Shown here piece by piece: positions 5,271 to 57,275 of a stretch of 64,000 bases of DNA. The first letter of the stretch is position 1, and each line of letters begins with the position of its first letter. This DNA comes from Candidatus Taylorbacteria bacterium RIFCSPLOWO2_01_FULL_48_100. GTDB taxonomy: Bacteria > Patescibacteriota > Minisyncoccia > Phycocordibacterales > UBA10002. The stretch covers positions 3,042 to 67,041 of the forward strand of contig MHSA01000011.1 in the NCBI GenBank assembly GCA_001821135.1. Reading direction: 5' to 3'. A model generated the notes under the pieces. The model made no database searches, was not told where the DNA came from, and saw nothing but the letters and a program-made list of their open reading frames with translations. Both the position numbers and the translations under genes were made by a program.

Positions 5271-6083
5271 ATGGACTACTGGAAAAGAGATGAACAAAAC
5301 GATGTTACGCTCCTGTTATTCAAACCAGGCGAGCAGGCATCAGAAGATTGTCATAGAGCTTTTGCGATTCTCAGGGAGGTTGAACTCACTGAAACAGAAA
5401 AGGTTCTCTCAATACTGGGAAAGAAAAATAAGCGACCACATCATGGCGGAGATTTGTACCAGTCCCCCAACTTGGGAGATGCTCCCTTGGAGACGGTGCG
5501 CCGAATCATTGCGGCAACACTCATTGTGTGCCGTGTCGAATGGTTCACTTTTGTGAATAGTATTGTTGAAATCACAAATCACAATAGTAGCAGGTCTCCT
5601 CATTTTCGTTACGGCGCGGTTCTCGGTCTTCTTGATGGGTTTTTGTATCCAGATCTGTTTTTGGGAGACGAAGATGATGAAGAAAAAACCTTGCCGTTTT
5701 ACGAGGACATTGGCCCGTGTTGCATATACACAGCAATACTGCTTTGTATATTGAAACTCACTTGGTGGTGTCCAGACGAAAACGAGGAAGACGGCCATCA
5801 ACTCTCAAAACAGCAATCTGGAGAGCTGTCTAACCTAATTAGCAAGTGTCTAGACGAACCTAAGTTAGGTGTCGTTGGAACTCACCCACGGATGCTTGCA
5901 ATATCGCGGTTCCTCACCGAAGTGGCAGTCCGTTACGATGAGGAAGACAGCGAGGGAGGTTCGTTTCGTTCTGAATGGATAGAGGCAATTGCAAATGGAT
6001 TTCTTTATAAAATGTTCGGTAAACTATCCTTCCAGAATCAAGTGGAGTTGGTGAACGAGGCCATTGTGGACTTAAACGGTTGA
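5271..6083 (+). CDS. Hypothetical protein
   Basis: 270-aa ORF with no recognisable domain. It is preceded by four CTGAAAGG repeats and followed by a terminator hairpin. Confidence 0.45.
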   Translation: MDYWKRDEQNDVTLLLFKPGEQASEDCHRAFAILREVELTETEKVLSILGKKNKRPHHGGDLYQSPNLGDAPLETVRRIIAATLIVCRVEWFTFVNSIVEITNHNSSRSPHFRYGAVLGLLDGFLYPDLFLGDEDDEEKTLPFYEDIGPCCIYTAILLCILKLTWWCPDENEEDGHQLSKQQSGELSNLISKCLDEPKLGVVGTHPRMLAISRFLTEVAVRYDEEDSEGGSFRSEWIEAIANGFLYKMFGKLSFQNQVELVNEAIVDLNG

Positions 6084-6142: not shown

Positions 6143-8656
6143 ATGATCTCAACGATGGCTGAAAAACAGAACAAGCGGCTGGTGCTTATAGATGCGCACG
6201 CGATACTGCATCGCGCATATCATGCGTTGCCGGAGTTTAGTAATAGCAAAGGCGAACCGACGGGCGGGCTCTATGGGCTTGCGGCGATGCTTATTAAAAT
6301 TATTGCGGATTTAAAACCCGACTATCTTGCTGCAGCGTACGATTTGCCGAAGCCGACTTTTCGGCATACTGCGTACAAAGAGTACAAAGAAGGGCGGGCG
6401 AAGGCAGACGATGCGCTCATTTCACAAATGAAACGCTCGCGCGAGATTTTTGAAGCGTTTGGAATCCCGATTTACGACAAAGAAGGGTTTGAAGCGGATG
6501 ATATTCTCGGTACGATTGTAGAAAAGTTACAAGTTACACGCTACAAGTTACAAGTTGATATAGTTATCGCGTCTGGCGATATGGACACCCTACAATTAGT
6601 TGATGGAAAAAAAGTGCAAGTGTACACACTCAAAAAAGGGATTAATGACACGGTTTTGTATGACGAAGAAAAAGTAAGAGAACGCTATGGATTTGGTCCA
6701 AAACTTTTACCGGATTTTAAGGGGTTGAAAGGCGACCCGTCGGATAATATAAAAGGAATAAAAGGGATTGGCGATAAAACTGCGACCGAACTCATACAAA
6801 AATTCGGCTCGGTTGAGGAAATCTATAAGAAGTTGAAGAAAGATAGGGGTATATTTGAGAAAGAAGGAATAAGTGCGCGAATGATTGGACTATTGGATGC
6901 GGGAAAAGAAGATGCTGAGTTTTCTAAAATACTCGGAACTATTCGGCGCGATGCGCCGATTGAATTCGCACTTCCTGAAAAGCCGTGGCGTGAGTGTGCG
7001 AATGTGGGTAATGCAGAAAAGTTATTTCAAGAGTTGGAGTTTCGCAACCTTGGGCAGAGGTTGCGGGCGGCGATATCAAAAGTTTCTTCATCTCGCCCTT
7101 TTCAAGGGGGAGTACCCGAGCGAAGCGAGGGGGAGGGGGTGGTTTCTGCAGAAATTAAATCACCCCTCCGCCCAGCACTTTCTTCAGAAAGTGCTGGGCA
7201 CCTCCCCTTAATCAAGGGCAGGATGAAAGAAAAAGAATTTTCCGACCTCTCCATCGCCCTTTGGCTCATCAATTCCAACCTAACAAACCCGACCGCGGAC
7301 GATGTGTGTAATTTTGCAGGAACGAAAGATGTGAGCGTGGCGCGCGCGAAAATTCTTGCGGAACTGAAAACGCGCGGCCTCGCGCGCGTATTTGAAGAGA
7401 TTGAAAAACCACTCATTCCTGTTGTTGAAAAAATGAACGCCCGCGGCGTGAAAATGGATACAAAGTATCTTGCCGTGCTTTCTACAGAGTACCACCGCGA
7501 GCTTGCTGCGCTGAAAAAAGAAATCTGGAGTATGGCTGGAACCGAATTTAATGTAAATTCACCAAAACAGCTTGGCGAACTTTTGTTTGTAAAAATGGGG
7601 CTTAAGGCGGCGCGACAGAAGAAGACGGCAGGAGGCGCGCTTTCAACACGCGAAAGCGAGCTTGAAAAGATGCGCGATTTGCACCCAATTATTGCGAAGA
7701 TTCTTGAGTACCGCGAGTTTCAGAAACTACTCTCAACCTATATTGACGCGCTTCCAGAATCGGTAGATACGCACGGTCGCTTGCACGCGTCGTTTTTGCA
7801 GGCGGGAACGACGACGGGGCGAATGTCGTCGCAAAATCCGAACTTGCAAAATATCCCCATTCAGACCGCGCGCGGCAGGCGGATTCGGAACGCATTCGTC
7901 GCGGATAATGGCTGTGCGCTCCTCGCGTTTGATTACTCGCAAGTAGAACTTCGCGTTGCGGCAATTCTTTCTGGAGACCAGAAACTTATTGAAATCTTCA
8001 AGAAAGGGGAAGATGTACATACTGCGGTGGCGGCGGAAGTTTTTGGTGTCGCGCCAGAAAAAGTGACTAAAGAAATGCGCCGACAGGCGAAAGTAATTAA
8101 CTTCGGAATTTTGTACGGTATGGGAGTGAATGCGTTGCGCGCTACACTCGGAGATGTAGAAACTCCAGTATCGCGCGCGGACGCGCAGAAATACTTGGAC
8201 GAATATTTCGCGCGCTTTCCAGTGCTCGCCGCGTATTTGGAAGAAACAAAAGCCGTCGCGCGCGAGCGCAGCTACACAGAGACCTTATTCGGGCGGCGCA
8301 GATATTTTGAGGCGCTCAATTCGCCGATTTCGTACATCCGCGCGGCAGCAGAGCGGCAAGTGATTAACGCGCCGATACAAGGCACTGCCGCAGATATCGT
8401 GAAAATTGCGATGGCTCGGGTGGCTGAATTTTTGCGAGACGAGAAATTAGACGAAAAAGCACGCTTGATTTTACAAGTGCATGATGAATTGGTATATGAA
8501 GTGAAAAAAGAGTCGGTTTCCGAGCTCGCGCCAAAAATACAAAAGATAATGGAGGGCGTGTTGTCTCCAGGGCAGTCGCGGGGTGTGCCGATTCTGGTAG
8601 AAGTGAGCGTCGGCGACAATTGGGGGGAGATGCGGAAGTTAGTGGAAAGTAGTTAG
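6143..8656 (+). CDS. polA: DNA polymerase I (5'-3' exonuclease domain plus family-A polymerase domain; no obvious 3'-5' proofreading domain)
   Basis: N-terminal LVLIDAHAILHRAYHA (5' nuclease). C-terminal family-A motifs DYSQVELR, the O-helix RRQAKVINFGILYG, and QVHDELV. Start placed at ATG 6143 (alternative 6155), after the upstream terminator. Confidence 0.9.
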   Translation: MISTMAEKQNKRLVLIDAHAILHRAYHALPEFSNSKGEPTGGLYGLAAMLIKIIADLKPDYLAAAYDLPKPTFRHTAYKEYKEGRAKADDALISQMKRSREIFEAFGIPIYDKEGFEADDILGTIVEKLQVTRYKLQVDIVIASGDMDTLQLVDGKKVQVYTLKKGINDTVLYDEEKVRERYGFGPKLLPDFKGLKGDPSDNIKGIKGIGDKTATELIQKFGSVEEIYKKLKKDRGIFEKEGISARMIGLLDAGKEDAEFSKILGTIRRDAPIEFALPEKPWRECANVGNAEKLFQELEFRNLGQRLRAAISKVSSSRPFQGGVPERSEGEGVVSAEIKSPLRPALSSESAGHLPLIKGRMKEKEFSDLSIALWLINSNLTNPTADDVCNFAGTKDVSVARAKILAELKTRGLARVFEEIEKPLIPVVEKMNARGVKMDTKYLAVLSTEYHRELAALKKEIWSMAGTEFNVNSPKQLGELLFVKMGLKAARQKKTAGGALSTRESELEKMRDLHPIIAKILEYREFQKLLSTYIDALPESVDTHGRLHASFLQAGTTTGRMSSQNPNLQNIPIQTARGRRIRNAFVADNGCALLAFDYSQVELRVAAILSGDQKLIEIFKKGEDVHTAVAAEVFGVAPEKVTKEMRRQAKVINFGILYGMGVNALRATLGDVETPVSRADAQKYLDEYFARFPVLAAYLEETKAVARERSYTETLFGRRRYFEALNSPISYIRAAAERQVINAPIQGTAADIVKIAMARVAEFLRDEKLDEKARLILQVHDELVYEVKKESVSELAPKIQKIMEGVLSPGQSRGVPILVEVSVGDNWGEMRKLVESS
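7095..7224. repeat. G/C-rich modular palindromic repeat element, copy B, inserted in-frame in the polA inter-domain linker (encodes ~43 aa: RPFQGGVPERSEGEGVVSAEIKSPLRPALSSESAGHLPLIKGR)
   Basis: Module GGGGGAGTACCCGAGCGAAGCGAGGGGGAGGGGGTG is identical to copy D at 39550-39642. Module CAGCACTTTCTTCAGAAAGTGCTGGGCACCTCCCC is shared with copy E. The ending CCTTAATCAAGGGCAGGAT is shared with copies C and D. Confidence 0.75.
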
Positions 8657-15367: not shown

Positions 15368-15793
15368 TTAACTTTTTGTCTTTGGTGAAGGCGACAACTC
15401 AAAGACATCGTGGTCTTTTTCAAATTTTACGCGGAAATACTCAAAGAAGTCCTCCTGTCCGAGGAGTATATCGACCGATGGACTGTCAATAAAAGCAACC
15501 AAAGCCGCTACCGGTTTATCAAAGTGTTTGACTTTGAGCGTTATTGACGAAAGGTAGCAAGGTATGCGCGCGCCGCTGATGCCGATAAATTCTTTTTTCC
15601 TTTCTGTATCCAACACAGCATCCAACGCTTTGGCGTACTCAAGATTTATGAGAGTCGTGTCAGCACCCGAATCTAAAAGACCAAGTGCTTTGATATTTTT
15701 ATTTTTACCGATTAACTCGAGTTCAACAAGCGGCCGTTTGAGCAAACGACCTTTCGCATTCGTTCCGAACACGGAAGTATATTCAAATTTCAT
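15368..15793 (-). CDS. Clan AA (retropepsin-like) aspartic protease, module 1
   Basis: Catalytic LLDSGAD (D-S-G-A) motif and a later I-G-x-D-type flap/dimerisation region, at retropepsin length (141 aa). Paralogous to 25373-25921. Confidence 0.7.
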   Translation of the reverse strand: MKFEYTSVFGTNAKGRLLKRPLVELELIGKNKNIKALGLLDSGADTTLINLEYAKALDAVLDTERKKEFIGISGARIPCYLSSITLKVKHFDKPVAALVAFIDSPSVDILLGQEDFFEYFRVKFEKDHDVFELSPSPKTKS

Positions 15794-15993
15794 GCACGAC
15801 AGCCAGGAGCGTACCCGACATCTGAAGGCAACACTCGCATAATGATTGATTCTTTCTCACCGACCTTTTGCTGTAATGACCGCAATGTGTCGTCTACAGC
15901 AACTACTTTTTTATAATCAGAAGAAACCGCCACCCACTTATTTTCGTGGGTTTTATTGAGGACTTTGAGGTTTGGAGCTTTTACTGTTTCCAT
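15790..15993 (-). CDS. DUF5678-like small protein, partner of the retropepsin-like protease (module 1)
   Basis: 67 aa; NKWVAVSSDYKKVVAVDD...IIMRVLPSDVGY. Overlaps the protease start by 4 nt (ATGA). Homologous to 25121-25369. Confidence 0.6.
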   Translation of the reverse strand: METVKAPNLKVLNKTHENKWVAVSSDYKKVVAVDDTLRSLQQKVGEKESIIMRVLPSDVGYAPGCRA

Positions 15994-16227
15994 AATAACT
16001 TTAGTATATCTAATCCATTATTCGTTTGCAATTAAAGATTTTCAGTCAGAAATTCAATGTCTTAAACTGCTCATCGTTTGCGCCAGTCAAAATAATCTTC
16101 TTATTAGGAAATGTCTCAAGTAAATCGTACATTTCTTTAAAAATTCCCTCGCCTTTAATAATAAATACTTGTACCGCATCAACAAGAATTGTTTTCATGG
16201 TTTTTTCATTTTTAATTTCAATAAAAA

Positions 16228-16314
16228 CGGAGGGGGTGAGATTCGAACTCACGAACGGTGTAAACCGTTAGAAGTTTTCAAGACTTCCGCACTAGACCTC
16301 TATGCGACCCCTCC
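16228..16314 (-). tRNA. tRNA-Ser (anticodon TGA), class II with a long variable arm
   Basis: The reverse complement folds as GGAGGGG...GAAGT-CTTGAAA-ACTTC...long variable arm...GTGAG-TTCGAAT-CTCAC-CCCCTCC-G. Confidence 0.75.
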
Positions 16315-16345
16315 CTCGCTACGATACTATCAAAATGAGCCGATA

Positions 16346-16741
16346 ATGTATAATGGCGCAATGCGCTTTATAGGCATTGATTACGGAACAAAGCGGGTGG
16401 GGGTGGCGGTGTCGGACGAGGAGGGGAAAATTGCGTTTCCGCATGTGGTCTTGGCGAATGACGAGAATCTGGTAACCGCGCTCGCGGCGCTGTGCCGCGA
16501 GCGCGGCGTGTCGGAAATTGTTGTCGGCGACTCGCGCGATTTTGCAGGCGAGCCGAATAAAATAACTGCGCACGTTAAAAAGTTTACAAAAGAAATTGTA
16601 GATGCAACGGGGCTTCCGGTACACAGCGAACCCGAGTTTTGGTCTTCGGCGCAAGCCGAGCGGTGGCAAGGCAAGACCGAAAAATTAGACGCTTCCGCCG
16701 CCGCTATTATTTTGCAAAGTTTTTTGGATAGAAATTGTTAA
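16346..16741 (+). CDS. ruvX: Holliday junction resolvase-like protein RuvX/YqgF
   Basis: MRFIGIDYGTKRVGVAVSD...IVVGDSRDF is the YqgF signature. The 5' extension of the tracked ORF overlaps the tRNA-Ser, so the start is set at the internal ATG 16346 (alternative 16361). Confidence 0.8.
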   Translation: MYNGAMRFIGIDYGTKRVGVAVSDEEGKIAFPHVVLANDENLVTALAALCRERGVSEIVVGDSRDFAGEPNKITAHVKKFTKEIVDATGLPVHSEPEFWSSAQAERWQGKTEKLDASAAAIILQSFLDRNC

Positions 16742-24298: not shown

Positions 24299-24739
24299 AT
24301 GCCGATTACTATTTCATCCGTAAATATGGAGGAGCGCAGAAAGCTTGACTTGCGCGCGGGCGACACTGTGCGCGTTACGCAGAAAATTACCGAGCGCGTT
24401 ATGGAAAAGGACAAAGTGAAGGAAAAGAAACGCTTGCAGGCGTTTGAGGGGCTCGTGCTCGCGCGCAAGCACGGGCGCGAGGCAGGCAGCTCGTTTACAG
24501 TGCGGCGCATTATCGGCGGTATTGGCGTGGAGCGAATTTTCCCTTTGTATGCGCCAACTATTGAAAAAATTGAAGTATTGAAGCGCGCGAAAGTGCGCCG
24601 CGCGAAGCTCTACCACATTCGCCGTAAAGCGGCGAAGGAAATCCGCAAGGCGATGCGCCACGAGCGGATGGAACAAAAAGAAATAAAAACAGAAACGACG
24701 CCCGTTGCCTCTGTTGCAGAAACGCCCCACACAGCATAG
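24299..24739 (+). CDS. rplS: 50S ribosomal protein L19 with a C-terminal Lys/Glu-rich extension
   Basis: AGDTVRV...[15 protein letters not shown]...[27 protein letters not shown]...[10 protein letters not shown] is the L19 signature. Confidence 0.8.
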
Positions 24740-24752
24740 GATAATTGAAGTC

Positions 24753-24833
24753 GCGCGGGTGTTGTAATGGTAGCCAAGCACGCTTGAGGTGCGTGTGCCG
24801 AAAGGCGTGGAGGTTCAAATCCTCTCCCGCGCA
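24753..24833 (+). tRNA. tRNA-Leu (anticodon GAG), class II
   Basis: Acceptor GCGCGGG/CCCGCGC; anticodon stem CACGC/GCGTG with loop TTGAGGT; long variable arm TGCCGAAAGGCGTG; T-arm GGAGG-TTCAAAT-CCTCT. Confidence 0.7.
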
Positions 24834-25120
24834 TTTAGATCTTAAAAAAATACTTATTAACATGACTTTTTGGGCAAAGATTTCTTGGGCTTCCGTATTT
24901 ATTTTTGGAACTACATGGTTTGTTGAAGGAGTATGCGACAATCCACCGCCAAGTTTGTGGCTCCAAGGAATACTGGCATTTCCTTGTTGGGATATTATAT
25001 GGTTTTGGGGGTACATGGCCGGAATAGCATTTTTGTATGGTGCTGTGACGGGTGAATAATGGGAAACTATAAAATTATAAAATATTGTAAAATTACCCAA
25101 GATATATTAATATATAGAAT

Positions 25121-25369
25121 ATGAAAGATAATTATCTTCAAATACAACTTGACTATTTTAAAGCACATCAAAATGAACTCGTAAAAAAATACGATGGAAA
25201 GTTTCTTGTCATCAAAGATCAAGAAGTTCATGGCGTTTATGATACAGAAATGGAGGCATACACAGATGCTAAGAAGAAATTTGAGATGGGTACTTTTTTA
25301 ATTCAACTATGCCTCCCTGGTCAAGAAAGTTATACCCAGACATTTCATTCTCGGGTTGCATTTTCTTAA
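25121..25369 (+). CDS. DUF5678-like small protein, partner of the retropepsin-like protease (module 2)
   Basis: 82 aa; GKFLVIKDQEVHGVYDTE...FLIQLCLPGQESY aligns with the module-1 protein (NKWVAVSSDYKKVVAVDD...IIMRVLPSDVGY). Confidence 0.6.
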   Translation: MKDNYLQIQLDYFKAHQNELVKKYDGKFLVIKDQEVHGVYDTEMEAYTDAKKKFEMGTFLIQLCLPGQESYTQTFHSRVAFS

Positions 25370-25372
25370 CCG

Positions 25373-25921
25373 ATGAAACATCACGCATTCACCACTAGAT
25401 ATAGCGGACGAGCACGGATGTTGTTTAATGAAGTTGGTGTGTGTTTACCAATTATTCCAACTGAAACACAAACGCCAAAAGTTGATTTCAGGAAGTATGT
25501 TGCGATATGGGATACAGGAGCAACACATTCTGCTATAACAAAAAAAGTTGCAGACGATTTGGGCTTGAAAGCAACAGGCATTGTAGAAGTCAGATATGGC
25601 GATGGAAAGTCTTCAACTAATACTTATCTCGTGAATATTTCATTGCCAAACAAAGTGATGGTTCCCCATGTGCGAGTAACAGAAGTAAAGCTTATTCCTG
25701 ACGACAACATTTCAGATGATAAACAACTTCAACTTTTAATCGGAATGGACATAATCGGTCTTGGCGATTTTGCTGTTACCAATGTCAACGGAAAAACGGT
25801 TTTTTCGTTTCGCATCCCATCAGTTGAGGAAATAGATTTTATACCTAGTGCTCAAGAAAATAATGTAATGGACAGTGGAAATAGACATGCACGGCGCGTT
25901 ATTCAAGCGAGAAAGAAATAG
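25373..25921 (+). CDS. Clan AA (retropepsin-like) aspartic protease, module 2
   Basis: Catalytic IWDTGAT motif and a later LLIGMDIIG region; 182 aa. It lies in an AT-rich islet immediately 3' of tRNA-Leu. Confidence 0.7.
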   Translation: MKHHAFTTRYSGRARMLFNEVGVCLPIIPTETQTPKVDFRKYVAIWDTGATHSAITKKVADDLGLKATGIVEVRYGDGKSSTNTYLVNISLPNKVMVPHVRVTEVKLIPDDNISDDKQLQLLIGMDIIGLGDFAVTNVNGKTVFSFRIPSVEEIDFIPSAQENNVMDSGNRHARRVIQARKK

Positions 25922-25976
25922 TGCTATACTACCCTCGCGTCGAGAACTATTATAAACCTCTTAATTTTTTCATTTT

Positions 25977-26234
25977 ATGGCGGAAAAAAAGGAAAAAGAA
26001 ATAGGAAAGGTGATTCATTGGTACGGCAAAATCAATGTCGCCGTGGTTAAGCTCGCGGGTGCATTAAAAGTGGGTGATGCAATAAAAGTGCGGCATGGCG
26101 AGAGCGAGTTTAAGGATGCGGTGTCGTCTATGCAACTGGACCATAAGCCGGTTGAAGCGGGGAAGAAAGGGCAGGAAATCGCCATCCAACTCTCGCAAGA
26201 AGCAAAAGACGGCTCGCTCGTGTATAAAGCGTAA
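25977..26234 (+). CDS. Hypothetical small protein (possible EF-Tu domain-2-like beta-barrel)
   Basis: 85-aa ORF; VGDAIKVRHGESEFKDAVSSMQLDHKPVEAGKKGQEIAI weakly resembles translation-factor beta-barrel domains. Confidence 0.35.
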   Translation: MAEKKEKEIGKVIHWYGKINVAVVKLAGALKVGDAIKVRHGESEFKDAVSSMQLDHKPVEAGKKGQEIAIQLSQEAKDGSLVYKA

Positions 26235-26848: not shown

Positions 26849-26922
26849 GGTGCCTATAGTGTAGCGGCTCTGCACGAGGGTTTGTGGAACCCTAAGTTCC
26901 GGATCGACACCGGATAGGCACC
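26849..26922 (+). tRNA. tRNA-His (anticodon GTG) with a 5' G-1 and a genomically encoded CCA (26923-26925)
   Basis: G-1 then GTGCCTA/TAGGCAC acceptor; anticodon stem AGGGT/ACCCT with loop TTGTGGA; T-arm TCCGG-ATCGACA-CCGGA; then CCCA. Confidence 0.65.
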
Positions 26923-26936
26923 CCAAATTATTGCGC

Positions 26937-55198: not shown

Positions 55199-55346
55199 CA
55201 AATCTCCCACTCAGTTGAGGGGGAGTACTTGAGTCCGTCTAATGCGGACGAATAGGAAGGGTGGGTTCGGGAAAAACACCACCACCTCCCCCAGCACTTT
55301 CTAAAGAAAGTGCTGGGTACTCCTCCTCAATTAATGAGGAGATTTA
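55199..55346. repeat. G/C-rich modular palindromic repeat element, copy E (largest, ~148 bp)
   Basis: AAATCTCCCACTCAGTTGAGGGGGAG ... CAGCACTTTCTAAAGAAAGTGCTGGGTACTCCTCCTCAATTAATGAGGAGATTT. Shares modules with copies B, F and G. Confidence 0.7.
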
Positions 55347-55409
55347 AATATAACACAAAAGAAAAACCGCCGTTCGCAAAAGATGTATGGCGGTTTCTGT
55401 AACATCAGT

Positions 55410-55652
55410 TTATTTGTAGCATTTTTTTTCGTTTGATTTACAAACCTCCTCGTAACTTATCCAGAACACTAAAACAAAGAGTATTGCCGCAAACGCAGGT
55501 AGTGTCCACAGTGTTCCCTCAAAAGAGAGGAATAAAAGACAACCCAATAAAAGCAGCAAAAACATTTTCGGTTTCCTTATCACCGCAATTGCTATGCTAA
55601 AGGCATCTTTTATGTTTTTTCGATTATTCTTCATAGCGTCCACTTTCTTCAT
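55410..55652 (-). CDS. Hypothetical small membrane protein flanked by repeat copies E and F
   Basis: 80-aa ORF with one or two TM helices. Confidence 0.35.
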   Translation of the reverse strand: MKKVDAMKNNRKNIKDAFSIAIAVIRKPKMFLLLLLGCLLFLSFEGTLWTLPAFAAILFVLVFWISYEEVCKSNEKKCYK

Positions 55653-55721
55653 TACACAAAACTGTCCAGTAAAGAATATACACTACACCGTTTATCGCGT
55701 CAACATTTTGTATATGTTCCA

Positions 55722-55751
55722 AAATCCCCTCCTCAACTGAGGAGGAGATTA
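55722..55751. repeat. Palindromic repeat element, copy F (AAATCCCCTCCTCAACTGAGGAGGAGATT)
   Basis: Minimal module also present in copies E and G. Confidence 0.6.
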
Positions 55752-55813
55752 AAGAGAAGCACCTTGCCTTGCTCACCCTTCTGTTTCCCATCGCAAAAAA
55801 CGCTTGAAAGAAC

Positions 55814-56650
55814 AAATGTCTTTTATGTATAATACAAATGTCCTTTATAAATGTCCGTTAGATTTTATAAACGACATTCATATATGTATAAAAAGAGCAT
55901 AAAGGACATTAGAAGAAATACAAATGTCCTTTATAAAAAGACAGAATATCCCGATATGTCCTTTATAGGCGGAGAGTACTTGATTTTCCTTGTTAAAAAG
56001 GTAGAAAACTTTGTTCGCGCTATATACCTAATAACAAATTTTCTATCGGACAGTGAGCCGTTAAAATGGAGATTACGGACAATCTCAACTGAATTAATTG
56101 ATAAGTTAATGTCCTTTATAAAAAGTGAAGTAAATCAAGTGAATATTCGTTTGTACCGCGCGGACTTTTTAGGGTGTCTCTCCGGTATTGTATCTCTGTT
56201 GAATGTAGGAGAAGAGGGCGGCGTTATTTCTGAAGCGAATGTTGCGCTTCTAAAGAGGGAAATACAAAGCTTTTTCCCCATTTTTAATGAGAGAATCTTT
56301 GTGATGCGCAAGGACGATATTGAAAATCTTCCGCTTGCAAAAAATAAAGAGGCGTCTTTTCGGCACAAACCTGCGCGCGGAAGACCCCGTCTTATGCGGA
56401 GGTTGTCCGTTAGAAACACTGAAGATGTTTTAATAAGTCCTATACAGGATTCTGATAACATACAAAATGTCTTTTATAAACATAAAGGACAAGACAATGT
56501 AAGCGTTCGTAAAAGAAATAAAAGAACAAGAAACATAGAAGACATAAGGTCAAAACTGCGCATCACTCGCCAGAAATCAATTATGGATATTCTAAAGGAC
56601 AAAAAGAAGTTAACAATTCGTGAGTTAATGTCCTTTATAAAGGACTGCGG
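55814..56650. repeat. Iteron-like array: at least 8 copies of ATGTCCTTTATAAA (and its inverse ATAAAGGACAT) in the promoter region and within the coding sequence of the 55851-56774 gene
   Basis: Copies at approximately 55819, 55838, 55898 (inverted), 55924, 55957, 56109, 56468 with adjacent inverted copy 56481, 56593 (inverted, partial: TAAAGGACAAAAAG) and the perfect palindrome GTCCTTTATAAAGGAC at 56631. Confidence 0.7.
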
Positions 56651-56774
56651 TGAGAAAACACTTCAGCGGGATTTATACGAATTGTCCGATAAGGGCGTGT
56701 TAAAAAAAGAGGGAGAAAAAAGGTGGAGTGCTTATTCTTTTGTTCAGCCGCTTCTATTATTTGATGGAAAATGA
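55851..56774 (+). CDS. Hypothetical DNA-binding protein with a C-terminal winged helix-turn-helix; the coding sequence itself contains the iteron motif (MSFIK peptide repeats)
   Basis: The C-terminal SIMDILKDKKKLTIRELMSFIKDCGEKTLQRDLYELSDKGVLKKEG is a DeoR/MarR-like wHTH. AT-rich gene. Confidence 0.5.
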   Translation: MSVRFYKRHSYMYKKSIKDIRRNTNVLYKKTEYPDMSFIGGEYLIFLVKKVENFVRAIYLITNFLSDSEPLKWRLRTISTELIDKLMSFIKSEVNQVNIRLYRADFLGCLSGIVSLLNVGEEGGVISEANVALLKREIQSFFPIFNERIFVMRKDDIENLPLAKNKEASFRHKPARGRPRLMRRLSVRNTEDVLISPIQDSDNIQNVFYKHKGQDNVSVRKRNKRTRNIEDIRSKLRITRQKSIMDILKDKKKLTIRELMSFIKDCGEKTLQRDLYELSDKGVLKKEGEKRWSAYSFVQPLLLFDGK

Positions 56775-57275
56775 GTTAAATAATTGACCATTTTTTGTGT
56801 ATATGCGATACTTATCGATGTGGATTCACGCGGGTTTCTACAAGAAACCTTTAGTTATCCACACATATATTTTGCGCATAAAAACTATGCGTCTTATAAT
56901 GTTTTATCAGCCCTTTGACAATTTAATAGTACACAGGTAAGATAGACAAAGTTGCATTGCGCCATATACCATTAAAACGACATTGCGCACATGCTTGTTA
57001 CGAAAGTAGTAATTATTCACCTTACCAACAATCCCTTTTTGTTTCTGTTGGCGATGACAGAAACCAAAGAAAAAGGGCGTTGGACCCGCATCATTTTTTT
57101 TATAAAAAAGTGATACTGGGTGCCAAACCGCTTTGAGCGTGTGCGCGTCGAACGCGCGCGCTCCGCAGTTGCGGTTTATAGAAAAAATCGTAGTTTGTTT
57201 TTCGGCATTATTGTTTTTTTATTAATAAATACCGAAAAGCAAATTATCCCTTAGTATTAATTTTTAGCTTTATTT

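Follow-up and report, generated by a model that had tools for sequence, protein, structure and literature searches.

A DUF5678-like and retropepsin-like gene pair in a variable islet beside tRNA-Leu(GAG) of a Candidatus Taylorbacteria genome, with a possible role in genetic conflict

Results

An AT-rich islet with a two-gene pair separates tRNA-Leu(GAG) from the next host gene

The DNA analyzed here is a 64-kb stretch (hereafter, the window) of a Rifle aquifer genome of Candidatus Taylorbacteria, and the element under study is an AT-rich islet of 1085 nt (24837-25921, plus strand) delimited by GC content and junction alignment between the 3′ end of a tRNA-Leu(GAG) gene and the promoter of p85, the host gene that follows. 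ARAGORN called the tRNA gene at 24753-24833 on the plus strand, and the insertion site is bounded on its left by the 3′ end of this gene together with the 3 nt that follow it. The islet carries, all on the plus strand, an open reading frame (ORF) encoding a hydrophobic protein of 65 amino acids (aa) (24862-25059), a conserved leader of ~36 nt (25085-25120), a gene for an acidic DUF5678-like protein of 82 aa (25121-25369; hereafter, the partner) and, after a spacer of 3 nt, a gene for a predicted retropepsin-fold aspartic protease of 182 aa (25373-25921), the stop codon of which forms the right edge of the islet. These last two genes are referred to as module 2, module 1 being a second pair located elsewhere in the window. 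Beyond the islet, also on the plus strand, lie the promoter and 5′ untranslated region of p85 (25922-25976), with an extended -10-like element TGCTATACT at 25922-25930, and p85 itself (25977-26234; 85 aa), which like the 65-aa gene was taken from the ORF list.

GC content per 300-nt segment fell from 0.53-0.56 at 24350-24800 to 0.32-0.39 at 24950-26000 and returned to 0.51-0.54 beyond. The islet as a whole has a GC content of 0.366, within the lowest 0.9% of all 1085-nt segments of the window (mean 0.480, standard deviation 0.039), and the GC content at third codon positions is 0.24 and 0.30 in the two module 2 genes versus 0.47-0.62 in the flanking genes. The sharp drop in GC after tRNA-Leu(GAG) that a first-pass annotation, made from the DNA letters, had reported was thus borne out, and its limits for the islet (24840-25930) fall within a few bases of those that we derived from empty-site orthologues. 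ORFs, Pfam matches and motifs likewise agreed with its description of a small hydrophobic ORF followed by a DUF5678-like and DTGAT-protease pair in the gene order of module 1. Because it occurs in several samples, on at least 24 contigs independent of one another, the islet is not an assembly artefact. No Rfam match that would indicate a non-coding RNA was found within it. As a side observation, the Rfam scan at gathering threshold returned five tRNAs in the window without tRNA-Leu(GAG) and tRNA-His(GTG) (26850-26925), both of which are called by ARAGORN, there and at matching positions in most orthologous loci.

The islet occupies a hot spot of gene turnover

Orthologous loci (designated by L numbers) were retrieved with p85 as the query, and share the gene order UppS-RluD-L19-tRNA-Leu(GAG)-[X]-p85-cobA-tRNA-His-FolD, the orthologous tRNA-Leu(GAG) being called in L009/L020, L071-L074 and L078. 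Segment X is empty in L073 and L078, where tRNA-Leu and p85 are separated by 55 and 61 nt. In L071/L072 it is a different AT-rich sequence, 749 nt long, that contains two unrelated ORFs; in L074 it spans 2.5 kb and holds an MFS transporter gene and an RNA-polymerase-alpha-CTD-like gene; and in L009/L020 it is made up of a PEMT-family gene followed by the same pair as in the window, with an identical right junction. At the two empty sites, the end of the tRNA (...GCGCA) is followed by 3 nt and then by TGCTATACT, the junction aligning as tRNA...GCGCA, TTA, TGCTATACTT; in the window, the tRNA end plus 3 nt and TGCTATACT are separated by exactly 24837-25921, and the stop codon of the protease gene adjoins TGCTATACT. 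On the strength of the empty sites, the alternative cargo, the recurrence of the same pair at an identical right junction and the deviant composition, we are highly confident that 24837-25921 was inserted at a hot spot, used recurrently, that lies between the tRNA-Leu(GAG) 3′ end and the p85 promoter. The presence/absence comparison of orthologous loci that had been proposed at first pass thus showed the islet not to be universal. At the population level no empty site was found, all 24 contigs with an identical neighboring protein (p85) carrying the pair.

The closest relative of the window, L071/72, differs from it by synonymous divergences (dS) of 0.16-0.93 in the flanks, yet is devoid of the pair. 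Between the window and L020, dS amounts to 0.79-0.94 in the pair and 0.72-1.94 in the flanks, a resemblance from which pair and flanks can be read as co-descended in these two genomes. The AT content of the pair is as high in L020 as in the window despite a synonymous divergence of 0.8-0.9, similar to that of the flanks, and is therefore no evidence of recent arrival here. In the simplest history, the pair would already have stood at the tRNA-Leu(GAG)/p85 junction in the common ancestor of the window and L009/L020 genomes; the 65-aa ORF in the window lineage and the PEMT-family gene in L020 would be later arrivals on the tRNA-proximal side, and the pair would subsequently have been lost from, or replaced in, the L071/72 lineage. 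With orthologous sites that are empty, filled or filled differently, this locus is well suited to studying accessory-gene turnover in Patescibacterial genomes, which have few recognizable mobile elements.

Two further observations concern the same neighborhood. A LAGLIDADG-like ORF of 220-222 aa lies between L19 and tRNA-Leu(GAG) in L009 (4344-5012), L071 (2483-3145) and L074 (765-1433) and not in the window, where a 13-nt gap (24740-24752) takes its place; this is a second presence/absence polymorphism, on the opposite side of tRNA-Leu. At the right-hand anchor of the hot spot, p85 (window 25977-26234 versus L072 4001-4255) shows a dS of 0.16, as against 0.42-0.93 for neighboring genes, and this much lower value suggests recent recombination at the anchor.

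The conserved unit consists of the two genes and their leader

In blastn alignments with five other hosts (L009, L010, L013, L014 and L017; locus GC 0.36-0.56), homology to the window extends from 25084-25118 to 25897-25917, with 74.5-76.6% nucleotide identity. These limits confine the conserved unit to the two genes and the leader of ~36 nt. The hydrophobic 65-aa ORF, which the first-pass annotation had listed ahead of the pair, lies outside this unit and represents separate cargo, nucleotide homology to other loci starting only at ~25085. Among 1.84 billion representatives, this ORF has a single related cluster (P0348; 48% identity, E 1.2e-10), the contig of which is only 1.2 kb long and uninformative as to context; it had no match in Pfam, NCBIfam, PADLOC or PHROG and no homologue in any of the loci fetched. 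It probably encodes a real but rare small membrane protein of two helices. The islet is thus made up of two independent pieces of cargo, namely a rare gene for a small membrane protein, and a two-gene cassette with its leader.

Predicted properties of the protease and its partner

The protease scored 34.8 bits against the Pfam family Asp_protease_2 (PF13650; cut-off 24.3). Its catalytic motif W46-D-T-G-A-T51 (nt 25508-25525) and its second motif L122-I-G-M-D126 are conserved to the extent that D47, T48, G49, G124 and D126 are invariant in 23 diverse homologues, and the longer block LIGMDIIGLGD (nt 25736-25768) is invariant or nearly so across phyla. An AFT motif near the N-terminus, also invariant, is among the most conserved residues. 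AlphaFold2 modeled the core (residues 40-147) with pLDDT values of mostly 80-92, leaving the N-terminal 15 residues and residues 155-166 poorly defined, and Foldseek matched the model with a probability of 1.00 to APRc of Rickettsia (5c9b; the best match in the PDB), the HIV-1 and EIAV proteases and the retroviral-protease domain of Ddi1, with target-normalized TM scores of at most 0.69. Score, motifs and modeled fold place the protein in clan AA / Asp_protease_2. It is not a member of TIGR02281, the NCBIfam model for clan AA DTGA proteases (19.9 bits versus a cut-off of 57.95), and sequence similarity to PDB entries was too low for any match.

Homologues differ in their C-terminal ends. Most of the distant ones, from outside the Patescibacteria, end in a SEC-C zinc motif (38.8-43.5 bits versus a cut-off of 20.4; e.g. 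L034 5241-5804 and L035 5980-6525; GRNDPCPCGSGKKYKKC…), in place of which Patescibacterial proteases, the window's included, have a cysteine-free basic tail or helix that opens with the same G-x-N. Across the family, the protease is basic (median pI 9.2) and the partner acidic (median pI 5.4).

The partner of module 2 scored 27.3 bits against DUF5678 (PF18929; cut-off 23.2), a Pfam model that misses many members of the partner family. Its AlphaFold2 model (pLDDT 80) predicts an alpha-alpha-beta-beta-alpha-beta arrangement followed by a C-terminal strand of lower confidence, and found no convincing neighbor in the PDB by structure or by sequence. In alignments of homologues, the last dozen residues of the partner (YTQTFHSRVAFS, nt 25331-25366, containing TQTFHSRV) are among its most conserved, the folded body being conserved as strongly. 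Domain searches detected none of the DNA-binding domains of type II antitoxins (RHH, HTH, AbrB or Phd type).

The pair recurs across phyla, in phages and in unrelated contexts

A scan of species-representative genomes yielded 45 loci, in 41 of which a protease ORF could be called. Patescibacterial loci were found at 68-86% identity and loci of other phyla at 33-51%, the latter comprising Cloacimonadota, Verrucomicrobiota, Acidobacteriota, Planctomycetota, Dehalococcoidia, Bacteroidota, Gemmatimonadota, Synergistota, Pseudomonadota and Bacillota; in all, more than 12 bacterial phyla carry the pair. Directly upstream of the protease, with a spacing of 0-5 nt, ~36 of the 41 genome loci have a gene of ~80 aa with the conserved pattern of the partner (consensus EFxYYLxHQxELVKKYxGKxLVIKxxxVxGxYDxExEA…LGTFLIQxCxPGxxxYTQTFHSRVxF). 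Cluster counts reached 1889 for the partner (profile search) and 2600 for the protease (single-sequence search).

The pair is further carried by 173 IMG/VR contigs, a 'viral' set that includes prophage flanks, and the partner precedes the protease, at the same spacing of 0-5 nt, in 79 of the 80 contigs fetched. A Pfam scan of four such loci found genes for DNA methyltransferase, ParB, integrase, VRR-NUC and DUF5131 proteins as neighbors, with a portal gene nearby in one of them. LE1-like phages of Leptospira also encode the pair beside the portal gene, with abutting reading frames (L093 2738-3531; vB_LbrZ_5399-LE1, KF114879.1). The protease ORF is unannotated in the KF114879.1 record.

In other Patescibacteria the pair sits in unrelated contexts, and between such hosts its proteins are 73-84% identical, compared with 65% for RecA, 41% for SSB, 43% for S18, 38% for TatD and 41% for an aminoacyl-tRNA synthetase. 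At locus L021, the pair shares an island with MazEF and a Bro-N gene. Ratios of nonsynonymous to synonymous divergence (dN/dS) of 0.04-0.15 for the partner and 0.07-0.15 for the protease, similar to those of flanking housekeeping genes, place both genes under strong purifying selection.

tRNA genes and direct repeats border the pair

Of 12 Patescibacterial loci, 7 have a tRNA-Leu gene on the same strand, 50-2812 nt ahead of the pair, and these genes represent four anticodons (GAG, CAA, TAG and CAG); in an eighth locus the pair follows a tRNA-Gly at 110 nt. The link to tRNA-Leu is significant at P < 1e-4 under a generous chance expectation of 1-3%, even when distinct sites only are counted; it was not seen at non-Patescibacterial loci.

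Direct repeats bracket the pair in 9 of 33 loci, compared with 2 of 176 size-matched random segments (Fisher p ~1e-6; ~25-fold enrichment). In L029, a perfect 19-nt repeat of the 3′ end of tRNA-Gly(TCC), CAATTCCCCTCGCCCGCTC, occurs at 5621-5639 and 6591-6609 and encloses an element of 0.95 kb that holds only the pair, a textbook attL/attR arrangement with no integrase. The repeat in L009/L020 (5618-5713 and 6550-6639; ~96 nt, ~89% identical) brackets the pair exactly and consists of the p85 promoter region and first 12 codons, such that the pair there may be transcribed from a duplicated host promoter; a short truncated ORF stands at the end of its left copy, directly ahead of the leader of the pair. 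Further repeats, at loci of unrelated phyla, are of 79 nt, within coding sequence, in L031 (5119-5197 and 6598-6676), of 74 nt in L028 (3415-3488 and 4500-4573) and of 78 nt in L038 (280-357 and 1721-1798), and terminator hairpins of 29-30 nt serve as repeats in L054 (5256-5285 and 6444-6473) and L055 (3887-3915 and 4746-4774). An integron cassette was considered and set aside, the bracketing repeats being locus-specific and without a common core, although no formal attC search was run.

Taken together, the same gene order and spacing across phyla and phages, the varying contexts, presence and absence among relatives, purifying selection, the bracketing repeats and the link to tRNA-Leu lead us to view the pair as, very probably, an autonomous mobile accessory cassette.

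Module 1 and module 2 are distant subfamilies

Module 1, located by motif scan on the minus strand (15368-15993), has the same gene order as module 2, with a DUF5678-like gene of 67 aa (15790-15993) and, overlapping it by 4 nt, a retropepsin-like gene of 141 aa (15368-15793). It begins 234 nt 3′ of tRNA-Ser(TGA) (16228-16314, minus strand), and tRNA-Ser and tRNA-Leu are both class II tRNAs, with a long variable arm. Its small protein scored 21.2 bits against DUF5678, just under the cut-off of 23.2 that its counterpart in L010 (36% identical) passes with 25.3, and its protease, bearing the motif LLDSGAD, scored 24.4 bits against Asp_protease_2, for which the cut-off is 24.3.

A tblastn search with module 2 against the whole window matched only itself, BLASTP between the two modules gave E = 34 for the proteases and no alignment for the small proteins, and hhalign (profile to sequence) returned probabilities below 1%. 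In L010, both module types stand side by side downstream of tRNA-Leu(CAG), the proteins of module 1 type being 36% and 41% identical to those of the window. As judged from sequence comparison, the modules are two old subfamilies of one two-gene system, with only Pfam families and architecture in common, and recent paralogy is ruled out at the level of detectable sequence similarity. Of the first-pass proposal that the islet is horizontally mobile, a variable, acquired insertion beside a tRNA gene stands (empty sites, other cargo, unrelated contexts, phages), while the module duplication invoked in its support falls away, there being no BLASTP- or profile-level similarity between modules 1 and 2.

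Two other AT-rich stretches were observed in the window. One (GC 0.32-0.37 at 15900-16350) lies between tRNA-Ser(TGA) and module 1. The second, at 55200-56800 (GC 0.37-0.39), is the only one in the window to equal the islet in AT-richness. It is flanked on one side by an FtsK-like gene and on the other by a gene for a very large surface protein, contains a membrane ORF of 80 aa (55410-55652, minus strand) and an ORF of 307 aa (55851-56774, plus strand), and may be another acquired islet.

Discussion

A small islet beside a tRNA gene is ordinary; what makes this one of interest is its uncharacterized and widespread cargo, which reaches more than a dozen phyla, genome-reduced Patescibacteria among them, and phages. 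Full-text literature searches returned no functional description of the pair, no paper on DUF5678 together with a retropepsin, and nothing relevant on retropepsins with an antitoxin or with SEC-C; a single paper, on an unrelated subject, mentions DUF5678. Our best overall explanation, toward which we lean by a modest degree, is that of a mobile, conflict-type cassette at a tRNA hot spot. The functional part of this explanation, namely that the pair acts as a toxin-antitoxin (TA) system or in defense or abortive infection, we hold to be about evenly poised; it is suggested, by analogy, by the obligatory pairing, coupled frames, mobility, phage carriage, location in TA-type islands, several divergent copies per genome and occurrence as the sole cargo of tiny islets.

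In such a system, the small acidic protein would bind and silence the protease, its invariant C-terminal strand (TQTFHSRV) plausibly occupying the substrate cleft or packing against the AFT strand at the N-terminus of the protease. The conservation of this tail and the known binding of extended peptides by retropepsins prompt the idea of pseudo-substrate inhibition, a specific mechanism that we put forward tentatively. Upon loss or destruction of the partner, the protease would cleave a cellular target and thereby damage the cell. The basic tail, or the SEC-C zinc motif in non-Patescibacterial homologues, may direct the protease to ribosomes or membranes, a role presumed from the known properties of the SecA C-terminal domain. 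Were all of these elements to hold, the pair could represent an undescribed conflict class, in which an aspartic protease effector is held by a partner strand and targeted by a SEC-C or basic tail, and in which a 0.8-kb cassette spreads without a recombinase of its own, leaving target duplications of 19-96 nt; this composite is speculative and, in our estimation, rather doubtful.

As to its entry, the islet encodes no recombinase, from which we infer that insertion was probably catalyzed in trans, at tRNA ends, by a recombinase (as the tRNA-Gly repeat of L029 would suggest) or else proceeded by recombination through conserved flanks.

Several observations weigh against the explanation proposed here. 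Toxicity, binding and cleavage by the pair are predictions from sequence, and the PADLOC models for the A genes of the nearest catalogued candidates match neither small protein. As regards mobility, plasmid carriage was not found, with zero matches among 72,556 PLSDB plasmids; dS between hosts is near saturation (~1-2), which makes the transfers old, and the high protein identity could partly stem from strong constraint instead of recent transfer. An att repeat of the tRNA-Leu 3′ end, as anticipated at first pass, failed to appear in the window: a repeat search and a comparison of the 3′ half of tRNA-Leu with 25880-26060 found no copy (Smith-Waterman score 7 versus a shuffle mean of 7.4), and among the relatives only L029 has an att-like repeat, derived from tRNA-Gly. 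No recombinase was detected among the three ORFs of the islet or its near neighbors (L19, p85 and Cob_adeno_trans), the rest of the window not having been scanned for integrases, and no promoter or terminator consensus was found on the plus strand within the islet. Finally, the bracketing repeats are heterogeneous (promoter with 5′ coding sequence, internal coding sequence, terminator hairpins, intergenic sequence and a tRNA end), and more than one process may therefore lie behind them.

The main rival explanation is a maturation system, in which the protease acts on a dedicated substrate and the small protein is its precursor or client, cut for example near TQTF/HSRV so as to free or activate a product. 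An invariant, extended C-terminal segment is just what a retropepsin cleft binds, the pairing is obligatory (~36 of 41 loci in genomes, 79 of 80 in viral contigs), and the genes appear to be translationally coupled. However, no export, modification or receptor genes accompany the pair, its neighborhoods in different genomes are unrelated, the tail of the partner is no better conserved than the folded body, and neither phage carriage nor location in a TA-type island is obviously explained, for which reasons we hold maturation to be improbable.

Somewhat less probable still is an accessory pair in the service of phages (anti-defense, superinfection exclusion or protein processing), the Patescibacterial copies of which would be remnants of decayed prophages at tRNA attachment sites. 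The 173 IMG/VR contigs and the Leptospira LE1-like phages, where the pair lies among early or accessory genes, would fit this proposal, as would the position of Patescibacterial copies 3′ of tRNA genes and the tRNA-derived, att-like repeat of L029. In contrast, the window islet and most Patescibacterial islets are free of other phage genes, the 'viral' contigs are in part prophage flanks, and chromosomal copies are still under purifying selection after a dS of ~0.9, which implies that they are kept for the cell or for themselves.

We consider it very unlikely that the pair is an ancestral, vertically inherited host operon of odd composition. The junction shared by the window and L009/L020, the match of pair dS to flank dS, fixation on 24 of 24 contigs with an identical neighboring gene and strong purifying selection would all be expected of such an operon, but it is contradicted by the empty sites in L073 and L078, by the closest relative (L071/72) being without the pair, by unrelated sites in other Patescibacteria, by the spread over more than 12 phyla and phages, and by a conservation of the pair between hosts far exceeding that of RecA, SSB and TatD. 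A recent within-genome origin of module 2 by duplication of module 1, to which the common Pfam families and gene order and the location of both modules 234-288 nt 3′ of a same-strand class II tRNA gene might point, can be dismissed almost outright given the negative tblastn, BLASTP and hhalign comparisons and the coexistence of both subfamilies in L010.

Comparison with known systems

The mobile cassette proposed here resembles, in its setting, tRNA-linked islands and their integrase-less derivatives, the latter being cis-mobilizable elements bounded by att sites: the islet lies at the 3′ end of a tRNA gene and has an atypical composition, empty sites, alternative cargo and stacking beside the tRNA. 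It differs from them in being only 1.1 kb in size, with no integrase and no att repeat in the window, and in that the bracketing repeats at other loci are not tRNA-derived and reach 74-96 nt. These long, locus-specific repeats hint at an insertion mechanism that is not obviously among the standard ones.

As for the protease, the characterized bacterial enzymes of retropepsin type include SpoIIGA and PerP as well as APRc of Rickettsia (PMC4140852), RimB of RimABK (PMC11957791) and the Rlo enzymes of Pseudomonas aeruginosa (PMC12239564). Like them, it has a retropepsin fold, a D-T/S-G-A catalytic loop and a psi-psi-Gly motif. Those enzymes, in contrast, are anchored in membranes, secreted or components of a ribosome-modification complex, and none is known to come with a DUF5678 partner or to be mobile.

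Closer in architecture are PDC-M52 and PDC-M08 of PADLOC, which are likewise two-gene cassettes of an A followed by a B gene, and the B models of which match the proteases of the window, with an E value of 1.3e-9 over the full length for PDC-M52B and the module 1 protease, and of 1.3e-4 for the B-gene match to the module 2 protease. They differ in that no A model reaches E <= 1 with either small protein, so that PADLOC would not call systems here. PDC-M52 and PDC-M08 are untested phage-defense candidates from 'guilt by embedding' in BREX, DISARM or restriction-modification loci, and appear only in a supplementary table, without domain description (bioRxiv 10.1101/2024.01.29.577857).

The broadest likeness is to type II TA systems, such as the MazEF that shares the island of the pair in L021. 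Both consist of two small, co-oriented genes, overlapping or a few nt apart, that are kept as a pair, with an acidic upstream and a basic downstream product, and both occur as several divergent copies per genome, with a patchy distribution over variable islets and phages, and as the sole cargo of tiny islets. The pair stands apart from type II TA systems in that its downstream gene encodes an aspartic protease, which to our knowledge is not an established class of toxin, and in that its upstream protein has neither an antitoxin-type domain nor a structural neighbor. If the pair is truly a TA or defense module, it would offer a simple model for the control of a retropepsin by another protein, its partner, and aspartic proteases would join the effector repertoire of bacterial conflict systems.

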